Below, one piece after another: positions 2,079 to 21,977 of a stretch of 64,000 bases of DNA. Source of the stretch: Clostridia bacterium. GTDB lineage: Bacteria > Bacillota > Clostridia > Oscillospirales > CAG-272. The position numbers were made by a program, and so were the translations under genes. The notes under the pieces are model-generated. The model was not told the origin of the DNA and searched no databases. It worked only from the letters and a program-made list of their open reading frames with translations. The stretch is taken from contig JAFTST010000004.1 of NCBI GenBank assembly GCA_017467165.1, forward strand, positions 595-64,594. The letters are read 5' to 3'. How positions within the stretch are numbered: the first letter of the stretch is position 1; every line of letters begins with the position of its first letter.

Positions 2079-5000
2079 ATGAGTGAACAGGAAAAAAACG
2101 GCTCGGTAGCCCTTTTTGGCGGCGTTGGCGCGGCTGAGGAGTCGGTTGCTTCCGAGAGCACGGCTCAGGCAGAGTCGCAGGCCGGCCCAAGAAGCGCCGC
2201 CCGCGAGTCGAAAAGAATAAGAAAAAAGGCGGGGCTGACCCATCCGGGCGCTGAGGTCGAGGGAAGAAAAAGGACCGGAAAAAAAGCGAAAAGGGACGCA
2301 GAGCGGGAAGAGGCACAGAAAAGTCGATTCTTTCGCGCCAGAGAATACAAGAATATAAGAAAAGCGCTGGTTATGGCGGCTGTTCTGGTGGTCGTGTGCG
2401 TTGCGGCAACCTTTTTGGTGCTGGCATTCGACCCTGACTTTGAGGTCGCGACGAGTATAGTCAGAGATATAAATATAATGCTCATCTCGACTAACGCCAC
2501 GTCCATAGGACTGTACGTCACCGCCTTCATATTCCTCAACGATTCTCTGAAAACGAGAGCCAACGAGGACGTTACTCTGCGCGAGGCGGTGGACAATATT
2601 CTTCAGCGATACAGAAAGAATATGCTGTTCATAGCATTTTCCATCATAGTAACGGTCGCTCTTGAGGTAATCAGTAACTTCACCCTCGGCGTAGGTGATG
2701 CTACGGGGCAGGTAGGCTTTGAGGACACTATGGTTCCTCTTCTCAGCTTCCGCTGGTTCTTCTTCGTGTTCATTTCCGCGTGCGCCATATTCTTAACCTT
2801 CTGGACAATAATGTGCAGTAAGGACATTACTCACAGCGACGGTCTTATCGCCGCAGAGGCGCAGCTGAATATGATTGAGCACAGGGAAAGACTCATTGAG
2901 CTGTACAACAGAGTCCTGAGCGACGCAGATGCCTACAACACCCTCACAGCCGAGGAGCGTCTTGCCGAGGGCGTTGAGGGAAGGGAGCTTCTTGACAACC
3001 TTGCCGACAGAAAATACAGCTTCGGTCAGGCTTGCTGTATCAGCGGCGTCGCCGAGAATAAATCGGGCGGCGAGGGACAGGATATCGTTATCAAGCTTGG
3101 CGACAGGGAATTCAGCTTCCGCGAGGCGTGCTGTAGCAGCAGTGTGACCAAGAGCGAGGACGAGGACGGTCAGAGCGAGCAGGATATTATTATCCAGCTT
3201 GGCAAGGAGGTAAGGTTTATCGAAACCATCATCTCCCGTATCTGTGAGAATAACATAGACAAGTCTATAATGAATAACGACTTCGTCTTCAGCAGCATGC
3301 GCTCGGGCTTCAAGTATCTATACGCCAGAAAGGACGGAAGCAACCAGGTAGATATCAGAGAGGAAAACCGCTTCCTCGACCATATCAAGTATCAGCTTCT
3401 CTCCACCTGCCGCAACGACGAGTCCCCCTACGACAACGATAAGGTCGAGGAGGTCTTTGAGAAGGCGAGGCTCGCGTACAAGTTCACCGTCTCAGACGAG
3501 TGCGATTATTCTGCGAGCATCGAGGAGATTAACAGCATTGACAATAAGCAGCACGGCTACATAAGGGACTACAAGGACAACACGGCTGCTATAATAGACG
3601 AATTCTTCGAGGGCTACGAGCAGCTTGTCGGCTACCGTGACGCGCTTATACACTACTCCGAGTATAACGGCCGCGACGAGCGCTCGAGAAGATGGAAAAT
3701 CAGGAAAAAGACCTCGACTGATAAGAAATACAAGAAAATGATAGCGCCGATAAGGTGGCTGTACGGAGGCTGGAACAAGCTCACCGCCTCTGAAGCCAAG
3801 AAAAAGAGCGCGGAAAAGAGAGATATAGAGGTCAGACGGCAGGCGAAGGAGAGGAGCGACAACCGCCGTATCCTCGGATACGCCAAGGTTATGAAAAGAG
3901 TCCTCCTTGACAGATTCACCTCCTTCGTCAAGATTAACGATATCAGCCTTGGTAACTCTGTATTTGATAAGGGCTGGCTCAACTATTCGGAGCTTTCCGA
4001 CTCGAACTTCACTCACTCCTCCTTCCGCTTCTCGAGGATTGAGAACGCGGTGCTTCGCCGCTGTGACCTTTCGACCGGCAACTTCATTCAGGCTGACGCG
4101 AGCAACAGTGACTTCACCGGCTCGAACTTCAACTACTCGGATATGACGGGTATCGACCTCACCAACAGCATCATCGACGGCTGTCAGATGAACGTTATCA
4201 GGCTTCGTGATATACGCATCGACGATTATCCCGGTATGAATATGCTCTACAATCTTGTCAAGGGCAACAACTACTACAAGTACGCATCGCAGAGATACAA
4301 GGACAACCCCGAGAAGAAGAACGCATGTATGGGCAAGTTCTACAGCTTTGACAGCGAGTTCCTTCTTCACAGAGAGTGGATAGATAAGCAGCGCACGATA
4401 GCTATGAACGACGACGGCGAGTACGGAGAGCGTATGAACGCCCTGAGAAGATGCTTCGCCCTTGATGAATTTATCAAGAACTTCAAGCTTTATTCCTCTC
4501 AGCCCGAGGAGAATAACAAGCAGGAATCCGCGGCTATTCTCGTCCTTGCCGTTGATAACGAGCTTAAGGACAACCAGAGCTCCAGCCTCTGCCGCGAGTT
4601 CCACGAGTCGCTCAAGTTCAAGGATAACGCTCCGGGTATATTCATGGGCGACGGATGTAGCCTTATCGACAGGTCTTATCTCATTCTCGTTGACGCGATG
4701 GATGAATTTATAAGCTACCACAAGTATTCCAAGATTGGAAAGCACACCTTCGACTTCCTCCCCGAGCTTCGTACAATGGAGGCTCAGATGTGGCGAGTTA
4801 TCAAGAAGAAGGGCACCCGTGTCAAGAAAATCGACGACAAGAAGATGAAAAAACTCTTTGAGTACGCGGGAAAGAAGCTCGTAGCGTACGGCAAGGCGCC
4901 CTCGACTGATATATTTGAGCTGGGCGAAGAGTGGCAGGCTATGAGCGAGGTCAAGAAGAGCTTTAAGGAAATCCGCGAGAGAACCGTAGGCAGAGTATGC

Positions 5001-17425: not shown

Positions 17426-19039
17426 TTATACCTCGGGAATTTCCACTCCCTCGGGAAGCTCGTCGGGAACAGTTCCGTTTTCTACATAGTCTATGTAGGA
17501 TGAGTAGTAGGAGAGGATGATGTCGTTGAGCTGCTCGTCGGTAACCTCGTCAAGCTCGCTGTAGTTATCAACCACGTAGTCGGACATTCCGCGGACAACG
17601 TCCTCCTCAAGCTCAATGCCGTTTTCCTTGAGCGTTTCGTCCATCTTTGTGTTGACTGCGTCGCGGTATTCGTCCTCGGTTTCAAAGTCCTCTTTATCGA
17701 TAGCGAGGGTCTCGTTAAGACCCGACTTGACGTTCTCATATGTTTCGGTAACACTCTCGTCAAGTCCCATAGAGTCTGCCATTATCGAGATGGACAGCTT
17801 GGTGAAAAGGGTAACGAGTCTGCCCGTTCTCGGATTTGTGTTAAGAGTGGTGATAATCGTGTCTATAACCAGCTCGCCCTCTGCATTTCTCATAACGAGC
17901 GCGTCCTGCAGAGCCTCGGTGTTACCCTCGCCGAGCATAGTCATAATGCCGTTATCTCCCATAATATAGTAGACCTCGAGCATTGTCAGAAGGTCACCCT
18001 CTATGTTCTCATAGGAGCTGTCGTGGAAGATGGAGAACGCCTCCTTGAAAAGAGAGGTGTAGGGCTCCTCGAGAGGAAAGCTGTCCATATTTTCGGTCAG
18101 GGCGGTTGACGAGCCGCGGAGTATTCCCGCGAGTATATTCGCCATATACTCGTCCTCGCTCATTTCCTCTACTATTTTTCTGAGGGTAGCCTGATGCTCG
18201 GGAGAGGGAGCCTTCCAGTCCATTCCCTTGAGCTCTGTCGCATCAAGGAATACACCTGCGAAAAGCGAAGCCTTTTCTCTCATATCGTAGCTTTCACCGT
18301 GAACCTCGGCGTGAGTGAGTCCTGCGAAAAGCGCATCTCCGCCGTTCTCGGAAATTATATCAACCACAGGGTTTTCAAACGCCTCGTCAAGATATGCGGC
18401 GTAGAAGCCCTCAACCTTTTCCTTCGATTCATCGGAGATGCTCTCGCTGACAAGAAGGTCAACCTTGATATTCTCGGCAACTCCGAGGAAGCCTGATACG
18501 GGAAGAAGAACGCATACCGCGATAACAGCACCTTGTACGATTCCCATAACGCCGCCAAGCAGCGTGGAGAAAAAGCCCTTGTGTCTGTCGACGAGTCCGA
18601 GAAGCGCTCCAAGCAGCCAATATACGAGCATAAGAACTGCCTTTGCTATGTAGAAGCAGGTGATGAATATCGCGGGAGCTACTCCGATAGCTATGAATAT
18701 GCCGAGGATATACTGTATCGTCTCGGCGTCAAAGGCGTTAATGATTTCTCGGGTCTCTGCGGGGACATCGGTTGCGTACGAGGGATAAAACGTCGTGGCA
18801 AGCTCCTCAATGGTCTTGCCCTCTAAGAGCTTATCTACCACACCGGTAAGACTCACCGCGAGAAAATAAGATACGACTGCGGCAATGGCAATAGTTGCAA
18901 TTCTGATTACCGTTTTTCCAAAGCCGCGCTTAAGTCCTGTGAAAAAGCCTAAAAGCATACTTAACGCTGCGAAGGCGAGTATGCCAAGCGAAATCCAACC
19001 GCCGACGGTCGCGGGCGGAATAGTAATATTGAAATTCAT
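17426..19039 (-). CDS. CvpA-family membrane protein with a long acidic C-terminal extension
   Basis: N-terminal 190 aa have 4 TM with GFFTGLKRGFGKTVIRI (CvpA-like RGF motif). A soluble D/E-rich region of ~350 aa follows. The gene ends 16 nt before the permease start. Confidence 0.55.
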   Translation of the reverse strand: MNFNITIPPATVGGWISLGILAFAALSMLLGFFTGLKRGFGKTVIRIATIAIAAVVSYFLAVSLTGVVDKLLEGKTIEELATTFYPSYATDVPAETREIINAFDAETIQYILGIFIAIGVAPAIFITCFYIAKAVLMLVYWLLGALLGLVDRHKGFFSTLLGGVMGIVQGAVIAVCVLLPVSGFLGVAENIKVDLLVSESISDESKEKVEGFYAAYLDEAFENPVVDIISENGGDALFAGLTHAEVHGESYDMREKASLFAGVFLDATELKGMDWKAPSPEHQATLRKIVEEMSEDEYMANILAGILRGSSTALTENMDSFPLEEPYTSLFKEAFSIFHDSSYENIEGDLLTMLEVYYIMGDNGIMTMLGEGNTEALQDALVMRNAEGELVIDTIITTLNTNPRTGRLVTLFTKLSISIMADSMGLDESVTETYENVKSGLNETLAIDKEDFETEDEYRDAVNTKMDETLKENGIELEEDVVRGMSDYVVDNYSELDEVTDEQLNDIILSYYSSYIDYVENGTVPDELPEGVEIPEV

Positions 19040-19081
19040 ATAAGGCGCTCCTTATCTAAAATATTTTTACTCGGCAAATTA

Positions 19082-19110
19082 ATAATACTACAATTTAACT
19101 CTAATGTCAA
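19082..19110 (-). promoter_or_regulatory. sigma70-type promoter of the cvpA-like / permease / TIR-LRR operon
   Basis: On the minus strand TTGACA (19110-19105), a 17-nt spacer, then TATTAT (19087-19082). AAGGAG RBS precedes the ATG at 19039. Confidence 0.55.
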
Positions 19111-19184
19111 TAACAGAAAAGAAAAAGAGAATTTTCAAAAAATGGAAAACAGAGAAAGCCTACCCAAAATAATACTCTCAAAGC

Positions 19185-19380
19185 CAACAGATGCGAAAGC
19201 GAGGGCGGAGGCGCTTATGCAAATTTTTCCTTTGATATGCTAACCTGCCCCGCTCCCGCATTTCGCAGTGCTTTTTGTTATTTTGTTGAAATTAAACAAA
19301 AAGGGGCAGTCCCAAAGGGACCGCCCACAAGATTGATTTTAGCATAGCGCGCGCTCGTTGTCAAGCGTTTTTACAAAAAT
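19185..19380 (+). ncRNA. candidate structured RNA upstream of hpf (possible raiA-motif-type RNA; unverified)
   Basis: A GC-rich island in an AT-rich 530-nt intergenic region. A long imperfect hairpin pairs TGCGAAAGCGAGGGCGG with CCGCTCCCGCATTTCGCA. GGGCAGTCCC-AAA-GGGACCGCCC is a second hairpin. CTGCCCC can alternatively pair with GGGGCAG (pseudoknot potential). The island lies upstream of hpf's own promoter. Confidence 0.3.
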
Positions 19381-19454
19381 AGCATTAAAACGCCACCAAA
19401 ATTAACCGTTTGTACATAAGTTATAAAATTCGGTGTAGAAACACAAAAAAACTG

Positions 19455-19483
19455 TTTACAATCACCACAAAATCTGCTATAAT
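19455..19483 (+). promoter_or_regulatory. sigma70-type promoter of hpf
   Basis: TTTACA (19455-19460), a 17-nt spacer, then TATAAT (19478-19483), about 90 nt before the hpf ATG. Confidence 0.6.
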
Positions 19484-19574
19484 AAAAGTGCGAAAGGGGA
19501 GATTCCCCGATCGAGTGGAACTCCAACTTCGCTATTCCACAGGAAAGGGCTCCCGATGGGAGCAGGTGAACGGT

Positions 19575-20099
19575 ATGAGGATCACGATTTACGGCAAGCA
19601 GATGACCGTCAGAGAGAGTCTTAAGACGGCAGTAGAGAAGAAGCTATCAAGATTTGATAGATTTTTCGGGGAGGAAACCGAGGGATTTGTCACCTGTCGG
19701 GTTAGGAAGAATGCCAAGATAATCGAGATTACCGTTAATTACGGTGGAGTAACCTACAGGAGCGAGGATGAAAGCGACACCTTCTTAACGGCGCTGGACA
19801 GAGCTGTCGAGAGTCTTGAAAGGCAGATAAGAAAGAATAAGACCAGACTTGAAAAGCGCATGAAAAGAGATGCCTTCGCCTTAGCGGAGGAAGACAACGA
19901 TGAGTACGTTGAGGAGGGTGATTTCGAAATCAGGGTTAAGACCTTCCCCTTCAAGCCGATGAGTCCTGAGGAGGCTATACTGCAGATGAATCTTCTCGGA
20001 CACAGCTTCTACGCCTTTACCGACGACAAGACCGGCGAGGTCTGCGTAGTATATAAGAGGCGCGCGGGAAGCTACGGTCTTATTATCCCGGATAATTAA
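19575..20099 (+). CDS. hpf: ribosome hibernation promoting factor (long HPF / RaiA family)
   Basis: MRITIYGKQMTVRESLKTAVEKKLSRFDRFF... N-domain plus the C-terminal dimerisation domain (FEIRVKTFPFKPMSPEEAILQMNLLGHSFYAF). The start is set at ATG 19575 because the promoter lies inside the longer TTG-initiated ORF (19410). Confidence 0.9.
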   Translation: MRITIYGKQMTVRESLKTAVEKKLSRFDRFFGEETEGFVTCRVRKNAKIIEITVNYGGVTYRSEDESDTFLTALDRAVESLERQIRKNKTRLEKRMKRDAFALAEEDNDEYVEEGDFEIRVKTFPFKPMSPEEAILQMNLLGHSFYAFTDDKTGEVCVVYKRRAGSYGLIIPDN

Positions 20100-20874
20100 G
20101 CTCCTGAAAACAAGAAAAGCCGAGGATGAAGCCTCGGAGAAAGGAAGGACGGTCCAATGGCACACTTGTAATTAAGTGGCAGGCAGCCCGTTAAAATTGA
20201 ATACGGGTGGGACCGAATTGAATTGAACCATCGGTACGCTTGCCATAATAAGCGTCTGTGACTGACGGCAAAACAGCATTCCGGTATAGATGATTTTCCC
20301 CATACCGTCAGCCGCTAAAAAAATAATTATATATACCGAACTCAGAAGAAAAAAGGTATGGACCAATGAGATAGTTAATTTCTTTAACGGTAAGGATGGG
20401 CAGGAGCCCCCGAAAGTCGTGATTGCGAGTAAGCTTGCTGCTTCAGGCAGATCACGGAATGATTTTTGGTACAGTCCAATGAACACCTGAATTTTTTGTA
20501 GGTAAATTCACCACTCGACTTAAAATTACTGTTATGAAAAGCCTAAAATAAATCTGAGGTCGCCGCGACGCGACAGGGGATAGTCCAAAGAATTTTCGCC
20601 CCGACAGGAATGAATCGGCAAGGAAGCCAGAGGACTAAAAGGAAAAAGCAAGAGCCAAAGATACGGATATACCCCGTCCGGAAACATGGCGCAATGAATC
20701 AACCGGTATATTCCAATGAACTAATAAGGGCAAGGCGTGTTAAATTTAATGAAATTTTACAGGCTTAAATGCAAAGAAAACTTTACAACTGAATATTTGA
20801 TTACTTGATTTATTAAATCTCAACGAGATTTGCCCGTGCCGGCGATATGGCACACAAATTATGCTCGAGCTTGT
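20100..20874 (+). ncRNA. ~770-nt ORF-poor, structure-rich region (unclassified large ncRNA or long hpf 3' UTR)
   Basis: No convincing ORF on either strand. Many local helices, e.g. CTGACGG...CCGTCAG, GATATACC...GGTATATT and AAATCTC-AAC-GAGATTT. Recurring GGTAnnnnCCAATGA motif at 20355, 20468 and 20705 (plus GGTCCAATGG at 20151). The region ends at the strong terminator at 20875-20912. Confidence 0.35.
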
Positions 20875-20912
20875 GCGAGGACGCCTTTTGGTGTCCTCGC
20901 TTTTGTTTTTTT
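20875..20912 (+). terminator. strong rho-independent terminator
   Basis: GCGAGGACGCC-TTTT-GGTGTCCTCGC (11 bp) followed by TTTTGTTTTTTT. Confidence 0.8.
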
Positions 20913-20993
20913 CGAAAAAATACTTTCTCTATTGAATTTGCGGGAATAATGATGTATACTGTCCTTGATAGTGACCCGTCCCGGAGGTTTATT

Positions 20994-21977
20994 ATGAAGG
21001 ATTTACTTTTTGCCTTTAATTCTGTGGCGCCGATTATATTTACCGTTGCCGTCGGATATTTTCTGAAACGCATAGGGATGATTGACGCAGCCCTTGCCAA
21101 GGCGGCTAACCGTCTGGTTTTCAGAGTGTTTCTGCCGGTTATGCTCTTTATGAACGTCTACGGCATAGACAGCCTCAGCGGAGGCAGCTACGGATATGCC
21201 ATATACGCCACTCTGGCGGTTGTTCTGATTTTTCTTGTAGGAATACCCGTAGTTATGCTGCTGACTAAGGACCCGTCAAGACGGGCTGCGCTTTTGCAGG
21301 GCATTTTCCGCTCTAACTATGCTCTTATCGGTATTCCTCTTGCCGAGAGAATAGCGGGAGCTGAGGGCGCCGCGGTTGCTACCGTTTTGTCGGCTGTCAC
21401 CATACCCGTGTTTAATATTCTGGCGGTAATTGCCCTCTCAATCTTCACCGAGGGGAAGAAGGGAAGCCTGAAGAATGTCCTACTCGGCATTGTGAAAAAC
21501 CCCCTGATAATAAGCATCGCAGCGGGCCTTGTAGCTCTCGGTGTCAGGGCTGTTTTTGTCAGATGCGGCGTTTCCTTCCGACTGAGTGAGGTAACCAGCG
21601 TCTGGGCGACGATGAAATATCTGTCAAATATAGCGACTCCTATGGCGCTTATTGTGCTTGGCGCGCAGTTTGAGTTTTCGGCGGTATCCTCGCTGAAAAA
21701 AGAGATTATCTCGGGCACGCTTCTTCGCAGCATTATAGTGCCCCTTCTCGGACTTGGAGTAGCATATCTCGCCTTTGGCAAGAGCTTCAGCGGAGCAGAG
21801 TACGCCGCTCTCGTTGCGGTCTTCTCGACGCCCGTTGCGGTTTCCAGCGTGCCTATGGCTCAGGAGATGGGCGCGGATAGTACCCTCGCGGGACAGCTCG
21901 TTGTTTTCACCACTCTCAGCTCGGCGTTTACCGTTTTCCTCGCGTCATTTGTTCTACGCCTTCTGGGTGTGTTCTGA
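20994..21977 (+). CDS. AEC (auxin efflux carrier) family permease
   Basis: MKDLLFAFNSVAPIIFTVAVGYFLKRIGMID... and 10 TM, typical of AEC/malate-permease-like proteins. GGAGG lies 6 nt upstream of ATG 20994. The longer ORF from 20847 would span the terminator. Confidence 0.8.
   Translation: MKDLLFAFNSVAPIIFTVAVGYFLKRIGMIDAALAKAANRLVFRVFLPVMLFMNVYGIDSLSGGSYGYAIYATLAVVLIFLVGIPVVMLLTKDPSRRAALLQGIFRSNYALIGIPLAERIAGAEGAAVATVLSAVTIPVFNILAVIALSIFTEGKKGSLKNVLLGIVKNPLIISIAAGLVALGVRAVFVRCGVSFRLSEVTSVWATMKYLSNIATPMALIVLGAQFEFSAVSSLKKEIISGTLLRSIIVPLLGLGVAYLAFGKSFSGAEYAALVAVFSTPVAVSSVPMAQEMGADSTLAGQLVVFTTLSSAFTVFLASFVLRLLGVF

Follow-up and report, generated by a model that had tools for sequence, protein, structure and literature searches.

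The window analyzed here, a stretch of 64,000 nucleotides from a Clostridia bacterium, encodes on its plus strand the long-form ribosome hibernation promoting factor (hpf, 19575 to 20099; PF02482 plus PF16321), and an exact look-up of this protein found no identical record. The HPF protein inactivates ribosomes and is the main ribosome hibernation factor of Firmicutes. Downstream of hpf follows a gene-free stretch of about 0.8 kb with the element described here (20120 to 20912, plus strand) and then the gene of an AEC-family permease. The promoter-like site of the hpf unit (TTTACA-17-TATAAT with a TG extension, 19455 to 19483, plus strand), the same pair of which is conserved upstream of hpf in relatives, is the only strong plus-strand promoter call upstream of the element; a scan of 19000 to 21500 called no plus-strand promoter between this site and the element, and no terminator was called between hpf and position 20875. 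In that scan, the sole plus-strand terminator call of the hpf-to-permease interval (20875 to 20900) was the strong terminator expected from the original prediction, with an 11-bp stem, 8 GC pairs, and a T-tract; this intrinsic terminator (20875 to 20912, plus strand) ends the element, and a second, weaker plus-strand call (21206 to 21218, 5-bp stem) falls inside the permease gene. Judging from these calls, the element is apparently co-transcribed with hpf, and an internal promoter is also possible; a weak match (9/12) is located at 20520 to 20549.

Between 20100 and 20990, the longest ORF on either strand has at most 104 amino acids, in line with the ORF-free region proposed in the original prediction, whose coordinates and sequences were as described. 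None of these ORFs is conserved as a protein across 21 related loci, which rules out a conserved small protein as the product. Gene callers put spurious ORFs of 60 to 100 amino acids on the element, for example a 66-amino-acid call in L202, a near-identical twin of the window locus. The element region folds well on the plus strand (z = −3.2) as well as on the minus strand (z = −3.8), and therefore, folding energy by itself gives no strand.

The region from 20120 to 20912 is one copy of a conserved, folded RNA family that is absent from Rfam 15. The family comprises 25 distinct RNAs of 430 to 1,100 nt (MAG or metagenome loci), all of them directly after hpf on the same strand: the element followed hpf in 18 of 80 genome loci, and further metagenome loci brought the total to 25. 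All loci were retrieved through hpf, and copies elsewhere in the genomes would have escaped notice. All hosts are uncultured Clostridia of one clade from gut and rumen (at least 25 loci). The RNA starts 10 to 70 nt past the hpf stop codon, without an intervening terminator, and the window, with 21 nt between the hpf stop at 20099 and the start of the first hairpin, conforms to this rule. Every member with sufficient sequence ends in an intrinsic terminator, and relatives without the element have a plain terminator immediately 3′ of hpf.

Searches with the window sequence alone (blastn and nhmmer) matched L001 and L002 only; the family was first recognized by shared motifs and architecture and was confirmed afterwards with a covariance model. 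This model (R1), built from only the two subgroups without the window, matches the window at 20701 to 20829 with 44.5 bits (E about 1e-4 in 449 kb), and about 30 control loci gave no match to it except a weak partial one (L081, E 0.54, short motif). The window has the 5′ part that characterizes the family (CCGRGG-loop-CCYCGG, AGAAAGGnAGG, and a start codon with one to four sense codons and a stop, at 20120 to 20171; 25-sequence alignment A1), three copies (20355, 20468, and 20705) of the internal GGUR-N4-CCR-AUG-HAC with an in-frame stop within four codons, of which members have at least one, and the 3′ domain with the last module, UUACAAYUGAAUA, a small hairpin, and the terminator. A metagenome search with the pattern GGAGARAGGN{8,14}RTGTTCTGA was too loose, and all 120 of the 120 stretches returned (L082 to L201) were unrelated. 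The single viral-scan match for GGTATAAGCCAATGAAC (L081), at a gene end with a terminator, had an unrelated context, as could arise by chance.

Covariation analysis, suggested together with the original prediction, was run on the relatives. In a 10-sequence subgroup, 36 of 107 pairs were changed on both sides, compared to 14 ± 2.6 in shuffles and 9 to 17 in slid controls, and covarying helices were also found within the window's own subgroup. At the 5′ end, the hairpin P1 (CCGAGG-AUGAAG-CCUCGG, 20120 to 20137, plus strand), correctly described as lacking a U-tract, is present in 25/25 members, with A-U, G-C, and G-U exchanging at stem positions 4 and 5. It is followed by the P2 domain (20176 to 20246, plus strand), in which the long-range helix of GUGGCAGGC (20176 to 20184) with GCUUGCCAU (20238 to 20246; alignment pairs 60 to 68 with 137 to 145) shows changes from C-G to A-U and from G-U to A-U; the inner hairpin CCCGU/ACGGG (20187 to 20191 with 20203 to 20207, plus strand) is replaced by UGUAAU/AUUACA in L203 and L211. 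Further downstream, a small conserved hairpin, GGGC-AGGA-GCCC (20398 to 20409, plus strand; pairs 453 to 456 with 464 to 467), has a G-C to A-U change, and the P5 helix of UCGUGAUU with GAUCACGG (20417 to 20457, plus strand), flanked by the conserved AAAGUC and GGAAUGAU, has compensatory double changes at 5/8 pairs and has its homolog in the short subgroups in the AAGUCGCG...CGCGGAAGAGG helix (helix 9 there). Both long-range P2 and P5 (20417 to 20424 with 20450 to 20457) covary strongly and were missed in the original prediction. Of the helices that it did list, relatives retain AAATCTC/GAGATTT, GTGCC/GGCAC, CCCGT/ACGGG, and the 5′ hairpin with compensatory changes, whereas CTGACGG/CCGTCAG, CGGTAT/ATACCG, CTGC/GCAG, and GATATACC/GGTATATT proved specific to the window and lie in regions that are unaligned in relatives. 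The first two of these build a long hairpin (CUGACGG...CCGUCAG with inner CGGUAU/AUACCG, 20262 to 20311, plus strand), whose loop, AGAUGAUU, is similar to loops of subgroup C.

Toward the 3′ end, the hairpin CCGA-CAGGAAUGAA-UCGG (20601 to 20618, plus strand; pairs 816 to 823 with 834 to 841) is conserved in the window's subgroup. The 3′ domain (20701 to 20829, plus strand), the part matched by model R1, holds a single-stranded-looking element, UUUACAACUGAAUA (20782 to 20795, plus strand), that is nearly invariant as UUACAAYUGAAUA in all subgroups. Next comes the small hairpin AAAUCUC-AAC-GAGAUUU (20815 to 20831, plus strand; elsewhere AAUCUUU...AAGAUU), with compensatory changes from U-A to C-G in the window and from C-G to U-A in L029, and then the hairpin GUGCC...GGCAC (20836 to 20853, plus strand; pairs 1143 to 1147 with 1158 to 1162), conserved with double changes in the window's subgroup. 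RNAalifold also proposed a helix (helix 2) between the 5′ purine tract and a pyrimidine-rich arm (UCUUUCU or UCUCC) of a 3′ hairpin. A long regulatory 3′ UTR with an interaction of 5′ and 3′ UTRs is known from icaR of Staphylococcus aureus (PMC3868564), and the pyrimidine-rich 3′ arm of the element could likewise pair with the purine tracts. However, 7/7 pairs of helix 2 are invariant or changed on one side only, and since covariation is seen in the local hairpin but never in these pairs, the 5′-3′ long-range pairing is left as an idea. Resemblances to the 3′ end of 16S rRNA (AAGUCG, CGGAAG, and UCUUUCU) are 6- to 7-mers, as expected by chance, and were discarded.

The recurring motif noted in the original prediction, GGTAnnnnCCAATGA / GGTANNNNCCAATGA, has three exact copies in the 64-kb window (0.00 expected), and the copies of GGTANNNNCCAATGA, at 20355, 20468, and 20705, are all on the plus strand and all within the element; the variants GGTCCAATGG at 20151 and AATGAATC at 20609 and 20693 were found as well. 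Within the element, CCAATG occurs 4 times (0.25 expected), GGTA 7 times (2.1 expected), and AATGA 7 times (2.3 expected). The motif had been seen as an RNA motif; each copy is a start codon with one to three sense codons and an in-frame stop. Across the family, such a module consists of GGUR, 7 to 8 nt ending in CCA, AUG, usually HAC, and then zero to two codons and a stop, and it sits behind a hairpin and an A/C-rich linker. The modules are rigid: G stands at −10 in 96%, the spacing is fixed, CCA precedes AUG, and HAC, never GAC, follows it. Thermodynamic folding leaves the module's GG and CC largely base-paired. Each species has two to seven modules (the first plus one to six more), with mini-ORFs of two to five codons, the start codon counted.

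An in-frame stop follows after one to four sense codons at 70 of 78 CCR-RUG sites. These 70 sites represent 30 distinct mini-ORF sequences that end in UAA (13), UGA (9), or UAG (8). For the 222 remaining AUGs of these RNAs, a stop follows after one to three codons in 18% and after one to four codons in 29%. In the homologous last module, the stop varies between UAA, UAG, and UGA, and the ORF length shifts by 3-nt steps; in two members, a GUG start replaces AUG. The generic arrangement GGDR-N6-7-AUG-(1 to 3 codons)-stop occurs four times on both strands of the 64 kb, three of them within the element. From these sequence statistics, we infer that the mini-ORFs are translated.

In the window, module 1 is headed by a purine tract, GGAGAAAGGAAGGA (20136 to 20149, plus strand), conserved as AGAAAGGnAGG, which is a very strong SD-like sequence; the duplex energy of first-module SDs with the anti-SD averages −12.6 kcal/mol and belongs to the top 1% of the background. 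Its mini-ORF, AUG GCA CAC UUG UAA (20157 to 20171, plus strand), has the counterparts AUG UUC UGA, GUG UUC UGA, or AUG UGC UGA in other subgroups. The SDs of internal modules are weak (−5.2 kcal/mol versus −3.9 kcal/mol for the background). These are, all on the plus strand, module 2, GGUAUGGACCA AUG AGA UAG (20355 to 20374, start AUG at 20366), module 3, GGUACAGUCCA AUG AAC ACC UGA (20468 to 20490, start AUG at 20479), whose CCAAUG may pair with the upstream UAACGG (20386 to 20391), and module 4, GGUAUAUUCCA AUG AAC UAA (20705 to 20724, start AUG at 20716), whose GGUAUAUUCC can pair with GGAUAUACC at 20665 to 20673. Module 4 is the single internal module common to all members. Translational coupling via upstream ORFs that end in the UGA of CCAAUGA, seen for some modules of subgroup C and for module 3 of the window, was inconsistent and was dropped.

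What kind of RNA is this? The original prediction had left three options. An unclassified large noncoding RNA and a very long structured hpf 3′ UTR are both supported by the position in 25 loci, the covarying helices, and the lack of an Rfam match, which do not distinguish one from the other. The third, a leader or attenuator of the AEC-family permease, falls: the permease gene does follow the element in the same orientation, but in only 3 loci (the window, L202, and L001), whereas 22/25 members have another downstream gene, often on the opposite strand and convergent (RNase III-like or other). Furthermore, in the window, the permease has a promoter-like site (20932 to 20960) and an RBS of its own, both beyond the strong terminator. 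Since the downstream gene differs and a terminator lies in between, the constant same-strand gene and the lack of a constitutive terminator that mark a cis-acting leader are both missing, and we consider this reading most improbable. Size, an origin in Clostridia and the rumen, many helices, and the raiA/hpf neighborhood are shared with one or more of the known large RNA classes, of which the element might be a divergent member. However, in the Rfam 15 search that the original prediction had recommended, none of 4,227 models matched the window or 15 loci at the gathering score, none (including ROOL, GOLLD, OLE, HEARO, and raiA) matched at E ≤ 10 in 19900 to 21100, and none matched at E ≤ 5 in five members, consistent with an unclassified RNA. 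A raiA motif was not found upstream of hpf, and the phage and plasmid collections held no DNA similar to the element. Because no Rfam 15 family matched, the element is not taken as ROOL, GOLLD, OLE, HEARO, or raiA/ModT, and the likelihood of such a kinship is practically negligible. A further candidate is a minigene inhibitor of translation like lambda bar or CreT, in which mini-ORFs would sequester particular tRNAs, either on stalled ribosomes or as peptidyl-tRNA, and thereby help HPF to shut down translation. CreT RNAs act in this way (PMC8501985), and the layout of each module (SD and AUG, with the stop one to a few codons later), flanking stem-loops, and several copies fit it. Module 1 fully combines a strong SD, an efficient start, and a very short ORF, but the SDs of most modules are weak, and neither an antitoxin nor a CRISPR context accompanies the element. 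Moreover, in 34 long ORFs of the window, AAC, UAC, CAC, and UUC outnumber their synonymous alternatives and are thus preferred, not rare, and tandem rare codons (consecutive codons with limiting tRNAs) do not occur in the mini-ORFs. Codon usage rules out a rare-codon tRNA trap, and minigene inhibition as such is very unlikely.

The modules may, on the other hand, be binding sites rather than ORFs. In this case, the RNA would serve a specific protein or RNA partner as a sponge or scaffold, with the 17-nt GGUAUAAGCCAAUGHAC as the site in two to seven copies, in the manner of CsrB, and the in-frame stops might be a mere safeguard that limits the damage from accidental starts at the conserved AUG, not the purpose of the element. 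Motif rigidity, with fixed spacing and conserved non-SD positions, resembles the site of a specific partner more than it does a generic ribosome binding site; the copy number that varies between species, the weak SD match of the internal modules, and their embedding among covarying hairpins also fit. Against this stand the lack of a known candidate partner and three features that it leaves unexplained, i.e., the very strong SD of module 1, the AUG-to-GUG swap that preserves a start codon, and the stop after only one to three codons in nearly all copies. A CsrB/RsmZ-type sponge for CsrA in particular was rejected; its site, GGA, is not enriched (17 versus 16.4 expected), and GGA loops are not conserved between subgroups. 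Altogether, a sponge or scaffold is a minority view that we take seriously. Doubtful, and ranked below it, is a purely cis-acting structured 3′ UTR that governs hpf mRNA stability by the blocking or recruitment of 3′ exonucleases or RNase III/Y, without any role of ribosomes. The element always lies between hpf and its terminator and has covarying helices, YhaM controls the hpf mRNA of S. aureus through the 3′ end (PMC11347170), and Firmicutes have long 3′ UTRs with regulatory roles, such as that of icaR (PMC3868564). However, the start/stop regularity of the modules and the strong SD would go unexplained, and 430 to 1,100 nt with conserved single-stranded motifs far exceed the needs of a stabilizer.

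Our preferred reading is that the element is a structured, ribosome-engaging 3′ extension of the hpf transcript. We put its probability at about 0.5 and infer the physiological role. The RNA carries a string of two-to-five-codon mini-ORFs and, therefore, probably works by engaging ribosomes. The weak SD match of the internal modules, the rigidity of the motif, and the base-pairing of its GG and CC in folds count against this reading. Ribosomes would be loaded strongly by module 1 and weakly by the remaining modules, and would terminate after a few codons, all of which are preferred and fast-decoded. The 5′ hairpin together with a ribosome at the strong SD may protect against 5′ exonuclease, like the STAB-SD and hbs-type elements of Bacillus. 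Ribosome occupancy would compete with the helices that hold several start sites, and via the fold, the number of active ribosomes might decide what becomes of the hpf message or a released RNA. Since the co-expressed HPF inactivates ribosomes, the RNA would be placed to sense, buffer, or reinforce this inactivation. It is imaginable, as a more tentative extension that we hold to be possible rather than probable, that the element is a ribosome-engaging RNA partner of the hibernation factor expressed from the same promoter, whose mini-ORF array, set in a folded scaffold, parks or cycles ribosomes or reads out the number of active ribosomes and thereby couples it to HPF production or hibernation.

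The element resembles ROOL, GOLLD, OLE, and the raiA motif (ModT) as a long, ORF-free, many-helix RNA of gut and rumen Clostridia, and yet it matches their models neither in sequence nor in structure and contains an array of start-stop mini-ORF modules. To our knowledge, such arrays have not been reported for ROOL, GOLLD, OLE, or ModT. With ModT it shares the genomic tie to the raiA/hpf gene, but its place is 3′ of hpf, apparently within the same transcript, whereas ModT is a separate gene upstream; raiA is the downstream neighbor of ModT in 66% of cases (PMC11706538). A close likeness to a module, an SD and an efficient start, few codons, a stop, and stem-loops nearby, is found in CreT and the lambda bar minigenes. 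There, decoding as such, rather than the peptide, is the function (PMC8501985). However, their codons are rare or "hungry" and those of the element are preferred; the element has two to seven modules in a covarying structure of 0.4 to 1.1 kb on a housekeeping stress gene, and, unlike CreT, comes without an antitoxin. Sequence features of stabilizers of the STAB-SD (cryIIIA) and hbs type, a hairpin and a GAAAGGAGG-like tract, are present too. In hbs of B. subtilis, ribosomes that initiate at a strong SD block RNase J1 (PMC5737220), and the element likewise has a 5′ hairpin and then GAAAGGAGG, a tract resembling a strong SD that no real gene follows. In contrast to those stabilizers, which are short and lie in the 5′ UTR of the protected gene, the module here follows the coding region and heads a long conserved RNA. 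In S. aureus, the HPF level is set via the mRNA 3′ end with its intrinsic terminator and YhaM (PMC11347170); there, a short 3′ end is trimmed by one nucleotide, without a long extension or mini-ORFs.

Large bacterial RNA classes of unclear function are few, and each has led to new biology. The element adds a conserved, covarying large RNA outside Rfam to this short list. It is a second RNA class near raiA/hpf, unrelated to the abundant raiA/ModT RNA, which suggests that ribosome hibernation has overlooked RNA components. That about 30 mini-ORFs keep a start, one to four sense codons, and any stop is a rare clear sign that ribosomes read a "non-coding" RNA, and this regularity makes the function of the element directly testable. 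If the more tentative, extended reading is true, a ribosome-engaging partner RNA of the hibernation machinery would be a new functional class.

The gene for the ribosome hibernation promoting factor, hpf (19575-20099, + strand), is followed on the same strand by a hairpin without a U-tract (CCGAGG-AUGAAG-CCUCGG, 20120-20137) and then by about 770 nt that hold nothing but short ORFs on both strands, up to a strong intrinsic terminator (20875-20900 plus T-tract, + strand). No conserved protein was found among the longer ORFs. The original prediction had described this layout from the sequence, including the weak hairpin, the lack of a plausible ORF, the closing terminator and a recurring motif, and each of these was recovered here. 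All three copies of GGTANNNNCCAATGA in the 64 kb (0 expected) lie within the region on the + strand, and CCAATG (4 versus 0.25 expected), GGTA (7 versus 2.1) and AATGA (7 versus 2.3) are enriched within it. The region folds better than shuffled sequences on either strand (z = -3.2 and -3.8), and therefore energy alone cannot assign the strand. The proposed Rfam search of the region returned no Rfam 15 family, whether at the gathering score or at E ≤ 10. Gene calling in L202, a locus of the same species (HPF 98% identical, element near-identical), predicted a 66-aa ORF within the element (3716-3916, corresponding to 20290-20490 of the window); since it is without a Pfam match and not kept in relatives, it is probably a false call.

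Searching one genome per species with the HPF protein yielded 80 loci in MAGs of uncultured Clostridia from gut and rumen, and further members came from contigs fetched via close HPF homologues; all loci were thus retrieved through hpf, and the occurrence of the family is known from hpf loci. The genes downstream of hpf are highly varied among the 80 loci, many of which nevertheless have 430 to 1350 ORF-free nt after hpf, and reading of these regions revealed a common architecture in 18. In total, the family comprises 25 distinct RNAs in four subgroups: A (the window, L001, L002, L203, and L211; 770 to 950 nt), B (ten sequences, about 550 nt), C (four, 900 to 1100 nt), and D (six, 430 to 560 nt). 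Where the element is absent, hpf is followed directly by a plain terminator. Post-hpf regions of 15 loci, members and nonmembers, gave no Rfam match, a raiA motif was not found upstream of hpf, and phage and plasmid collections held no DNA similar to the element.

The family alignments are small (5 to 16 sequences). For subgroup B, RNAalifold predicted 107 pairs from ten sequences, and although the figures are somewhat inflated, as the structure was taken from the same alignment, both sides are changed at least once in 36 of these pairs, compared to 14 ± 2.6 in column shuffles (0 of 500 reach 36) and 9 to 17 with slid partners; 92% of the cells are paired, compared to about 40 to 47% when slid. 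Helices 5, 9-12, 14, and 18 contain 3 to 8 covarying pairs apiece. In subgroup A, covariation was seen in the 5′ hairpin, 20176-84 with 20238-46, GGGC/GCCC (20398-20409), 20417-24 with 20450-57 (compensatory in 5 of 8 pairs), 20815-21 with 20825-31, and 20836-40 with 20849-53; some of the helices originally listed are among them, and the others lie in window-specific inserts that cannot be aligned. Furthermore, a covariance model built from subgroups B and D alone detected the 3′ domain of the window (20701-20829; 44.5 bits, E about 1e-4 in 449 kb) and, with similar scores, all remaining subgroup A members; in about 30 control loci, it matched nothing except, weakly and partially, the short motif (one hit; L081, E 0.54). 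The element is a conserved, covarying RNA that always lies 3′ of hpf, in keeping with two of the earlier options, an unclassified large noncoding RNA or a long structured hpf 3′ UTR. The third, a leader or attenuator of the AEC permease, is ruled out because the permease follows the element in the window, L202, and L001 only, downstream genes elsewhere being varied, and because a terminator intervenes.

The recurring motif proved to be present and conserved, and to be more than a motif: GGUR and a spacer ending in CCA are followed by a start codon, 1 to 4 sense codons, and an in-frame stop (consensus R(-11) G U A U A R D C C A AUG H A C). In a census of every CCR-RUG in the 25 RNAs, chosen blind to the downstream sequence, 70 of 78 sites have an in-frame stop after 1 to 4 sense codons, and the eight exceptions include sites without an upstream GG; for the 222 other AUGs in these RNAs, the share with a stop after 1 to 3 codons is 18%, and after 1 to 4 codons 29%. 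The 30 distinct mini-ORF sequences end in UAA (13), UGA (9), or UAG (8) after one (11), two (15), three (2), or four (2) sense codons. In the internal module common to all members, the stop alternates between UAA, UAG, and UGA and the ORF length shifts by whole codons; in the first module (start codon at 20157), GUG replaces AUG in two members. The generic pattern GGDR-N6-7-AUG-(1-3 codons)-stop has four matches on both strands of the 64 kb, three of them in the region. 5′ of the first module are the covarying hairpin and then a purine tract, whose pairing with the anti-Shine-Dalgarno (anti-SD) sequence averages -12.6 kcal/mol (top 1% of background); for the internal modules the value is just -5.2 kcal/mol, compared to a background of -3.9. 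Upstream of the modules there is usually a variable stable hairpin and an A/C-rich linker, and in some, an upstream UACC is paired with GGUA. In L001, this UACC immediately follows the stop of the preceding mini-ORF, an arrangement typical of translational coupling, although the layout is not general.

In members and nonmembers alike, the 5′ UTR of hpf (19484-19574; same position in L001-L080) has a conserved architecture of its own, without an Rfam match: a GUGGAAU...AUUCCAC hairpin, GAAAGG, a variable covarying hairpin, and GGUR-N6-7-AUG. The hpf start site hence shares the GGUR element and its spacing with the 3′ modules. The interval between hpf and the divergent 537-aa gene upstream of it contains a strong terminator (19304-19326, - strand) and an 11/12 promoter-like site (19336-19364, - strand).

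Several element-free loci (L005, 1541-1640; L007, L020, L041, L048-L053, and L058) carry another conserved stretch of about 100 nt directly after hpf (ggcgatagccgtcgtttgtcaccgctcg...gtag...ctac..cttcggg...ttttcctc), which on the opposite strand has the form of an SD followed by an 18-codon ORF and which gave no Rfam match in L005 and L049. In L018 (3560-3870) and L017 (5130-5230), two to four tandem 67-nt units (ataagcgacggtgtcgcaattataaaccgccgatggcggtaattataaactcgcgtggctcgtaatt), each of three small hairpins, lie just 3′ of the element terminator. Compared to L203 and L205, the metagenomic L204 has a 19-nt deletion, natural or due to faulty assembly, that drops the otherwise near-invariant UUACAACUGAA about 745 to 765 nt past the hpf stop. 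In subgroup C, L057 has a glycine riboswitch 3′ of the element (3668-3757, 48.6 bits), L051 and L060 have T-box-leader-like sequences (AGAGAG...GGUACCGCG) about 1000 to 1250 nt after hpf, and all three have an additional conserved 3′ domain (GGGCGCUGAAUCACAGGCCCG ... GUUGAACUUUAUUAAGGACGAUAGUCCGGAAAAUCAG) ahead of the terminator. In many loci, a gene for an RNase III-like protein of 365 to 448 aa (Ribonucleas_3_3 plus dsrm) converges on the element end or the hpf terminator (- strand; L207, 4272-5618; L214, 3483-4634; L216, 3621-4718), and the minus-strand post-hpf ORFs of L011-L016, L026, L031, L034, and many nonmembers are probably also RNase III-like. RNase III beside a long helical RNA is a noteworthy pairing, but the arrangement seems to reflect synteny within the clade, not a specific link.

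Since no promoter or terminator was called between them, hpf and the element appear to share one transcript, although a weak promoter-like match (9/12) is present inside the element (20520-20549). The modules are regular, the first has a strong SD, and a terminator ends the RNA. In-frame stops of any identity at varying whole-codon distances, in about 30 sequences, suggest that ribosomes read the mini-ORFs, decoding being the sole explanation we see for this pattern; decoding may be the function of the RNA or only tolerated by it. The most economical mechanism would be that ribosome loading protects the RNA, with the 5′ hairpin and strong SD acting as in STAB-SD and in B. subtilis hbs (PMC5737220). 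Loading would also compete with folding of the RNA, and this competition would make what becomes of the hpf message, or of a released RNA, depend on translational capacity. A specific binding partner is also conceivable, given the rigid motif and the weak SDs of the internal modules. A trap for rare-codon tRNAs, as in CreT or bar (PMC8501985), is at odds with the codons used, as AAC, UAC, CAC, and UUC are the preferred synonymous codons of the window's genes, and a CsrB-type sponge is at odds with the GGA counts (17 in the region versus 16.4 expected).

The family is missing from Rfam 15, and text searches of a partial literature found no paper describing it. The raiA/ModT RNA, a frequent neighbor of raiA/hpf (PMC11706538), is likewise associated with these genes, yet unrelated to the element. 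In S. aureus, the 3′ end of the hpf mRNA sets the HPF level (PMC11347170). In sum, the family is a new class within the large structured bacterial RNAs or long structured 3′ UTRs; its one unusual property is the array of mini-ORF modules, and it has a suggestive partner in the hibernation factor.
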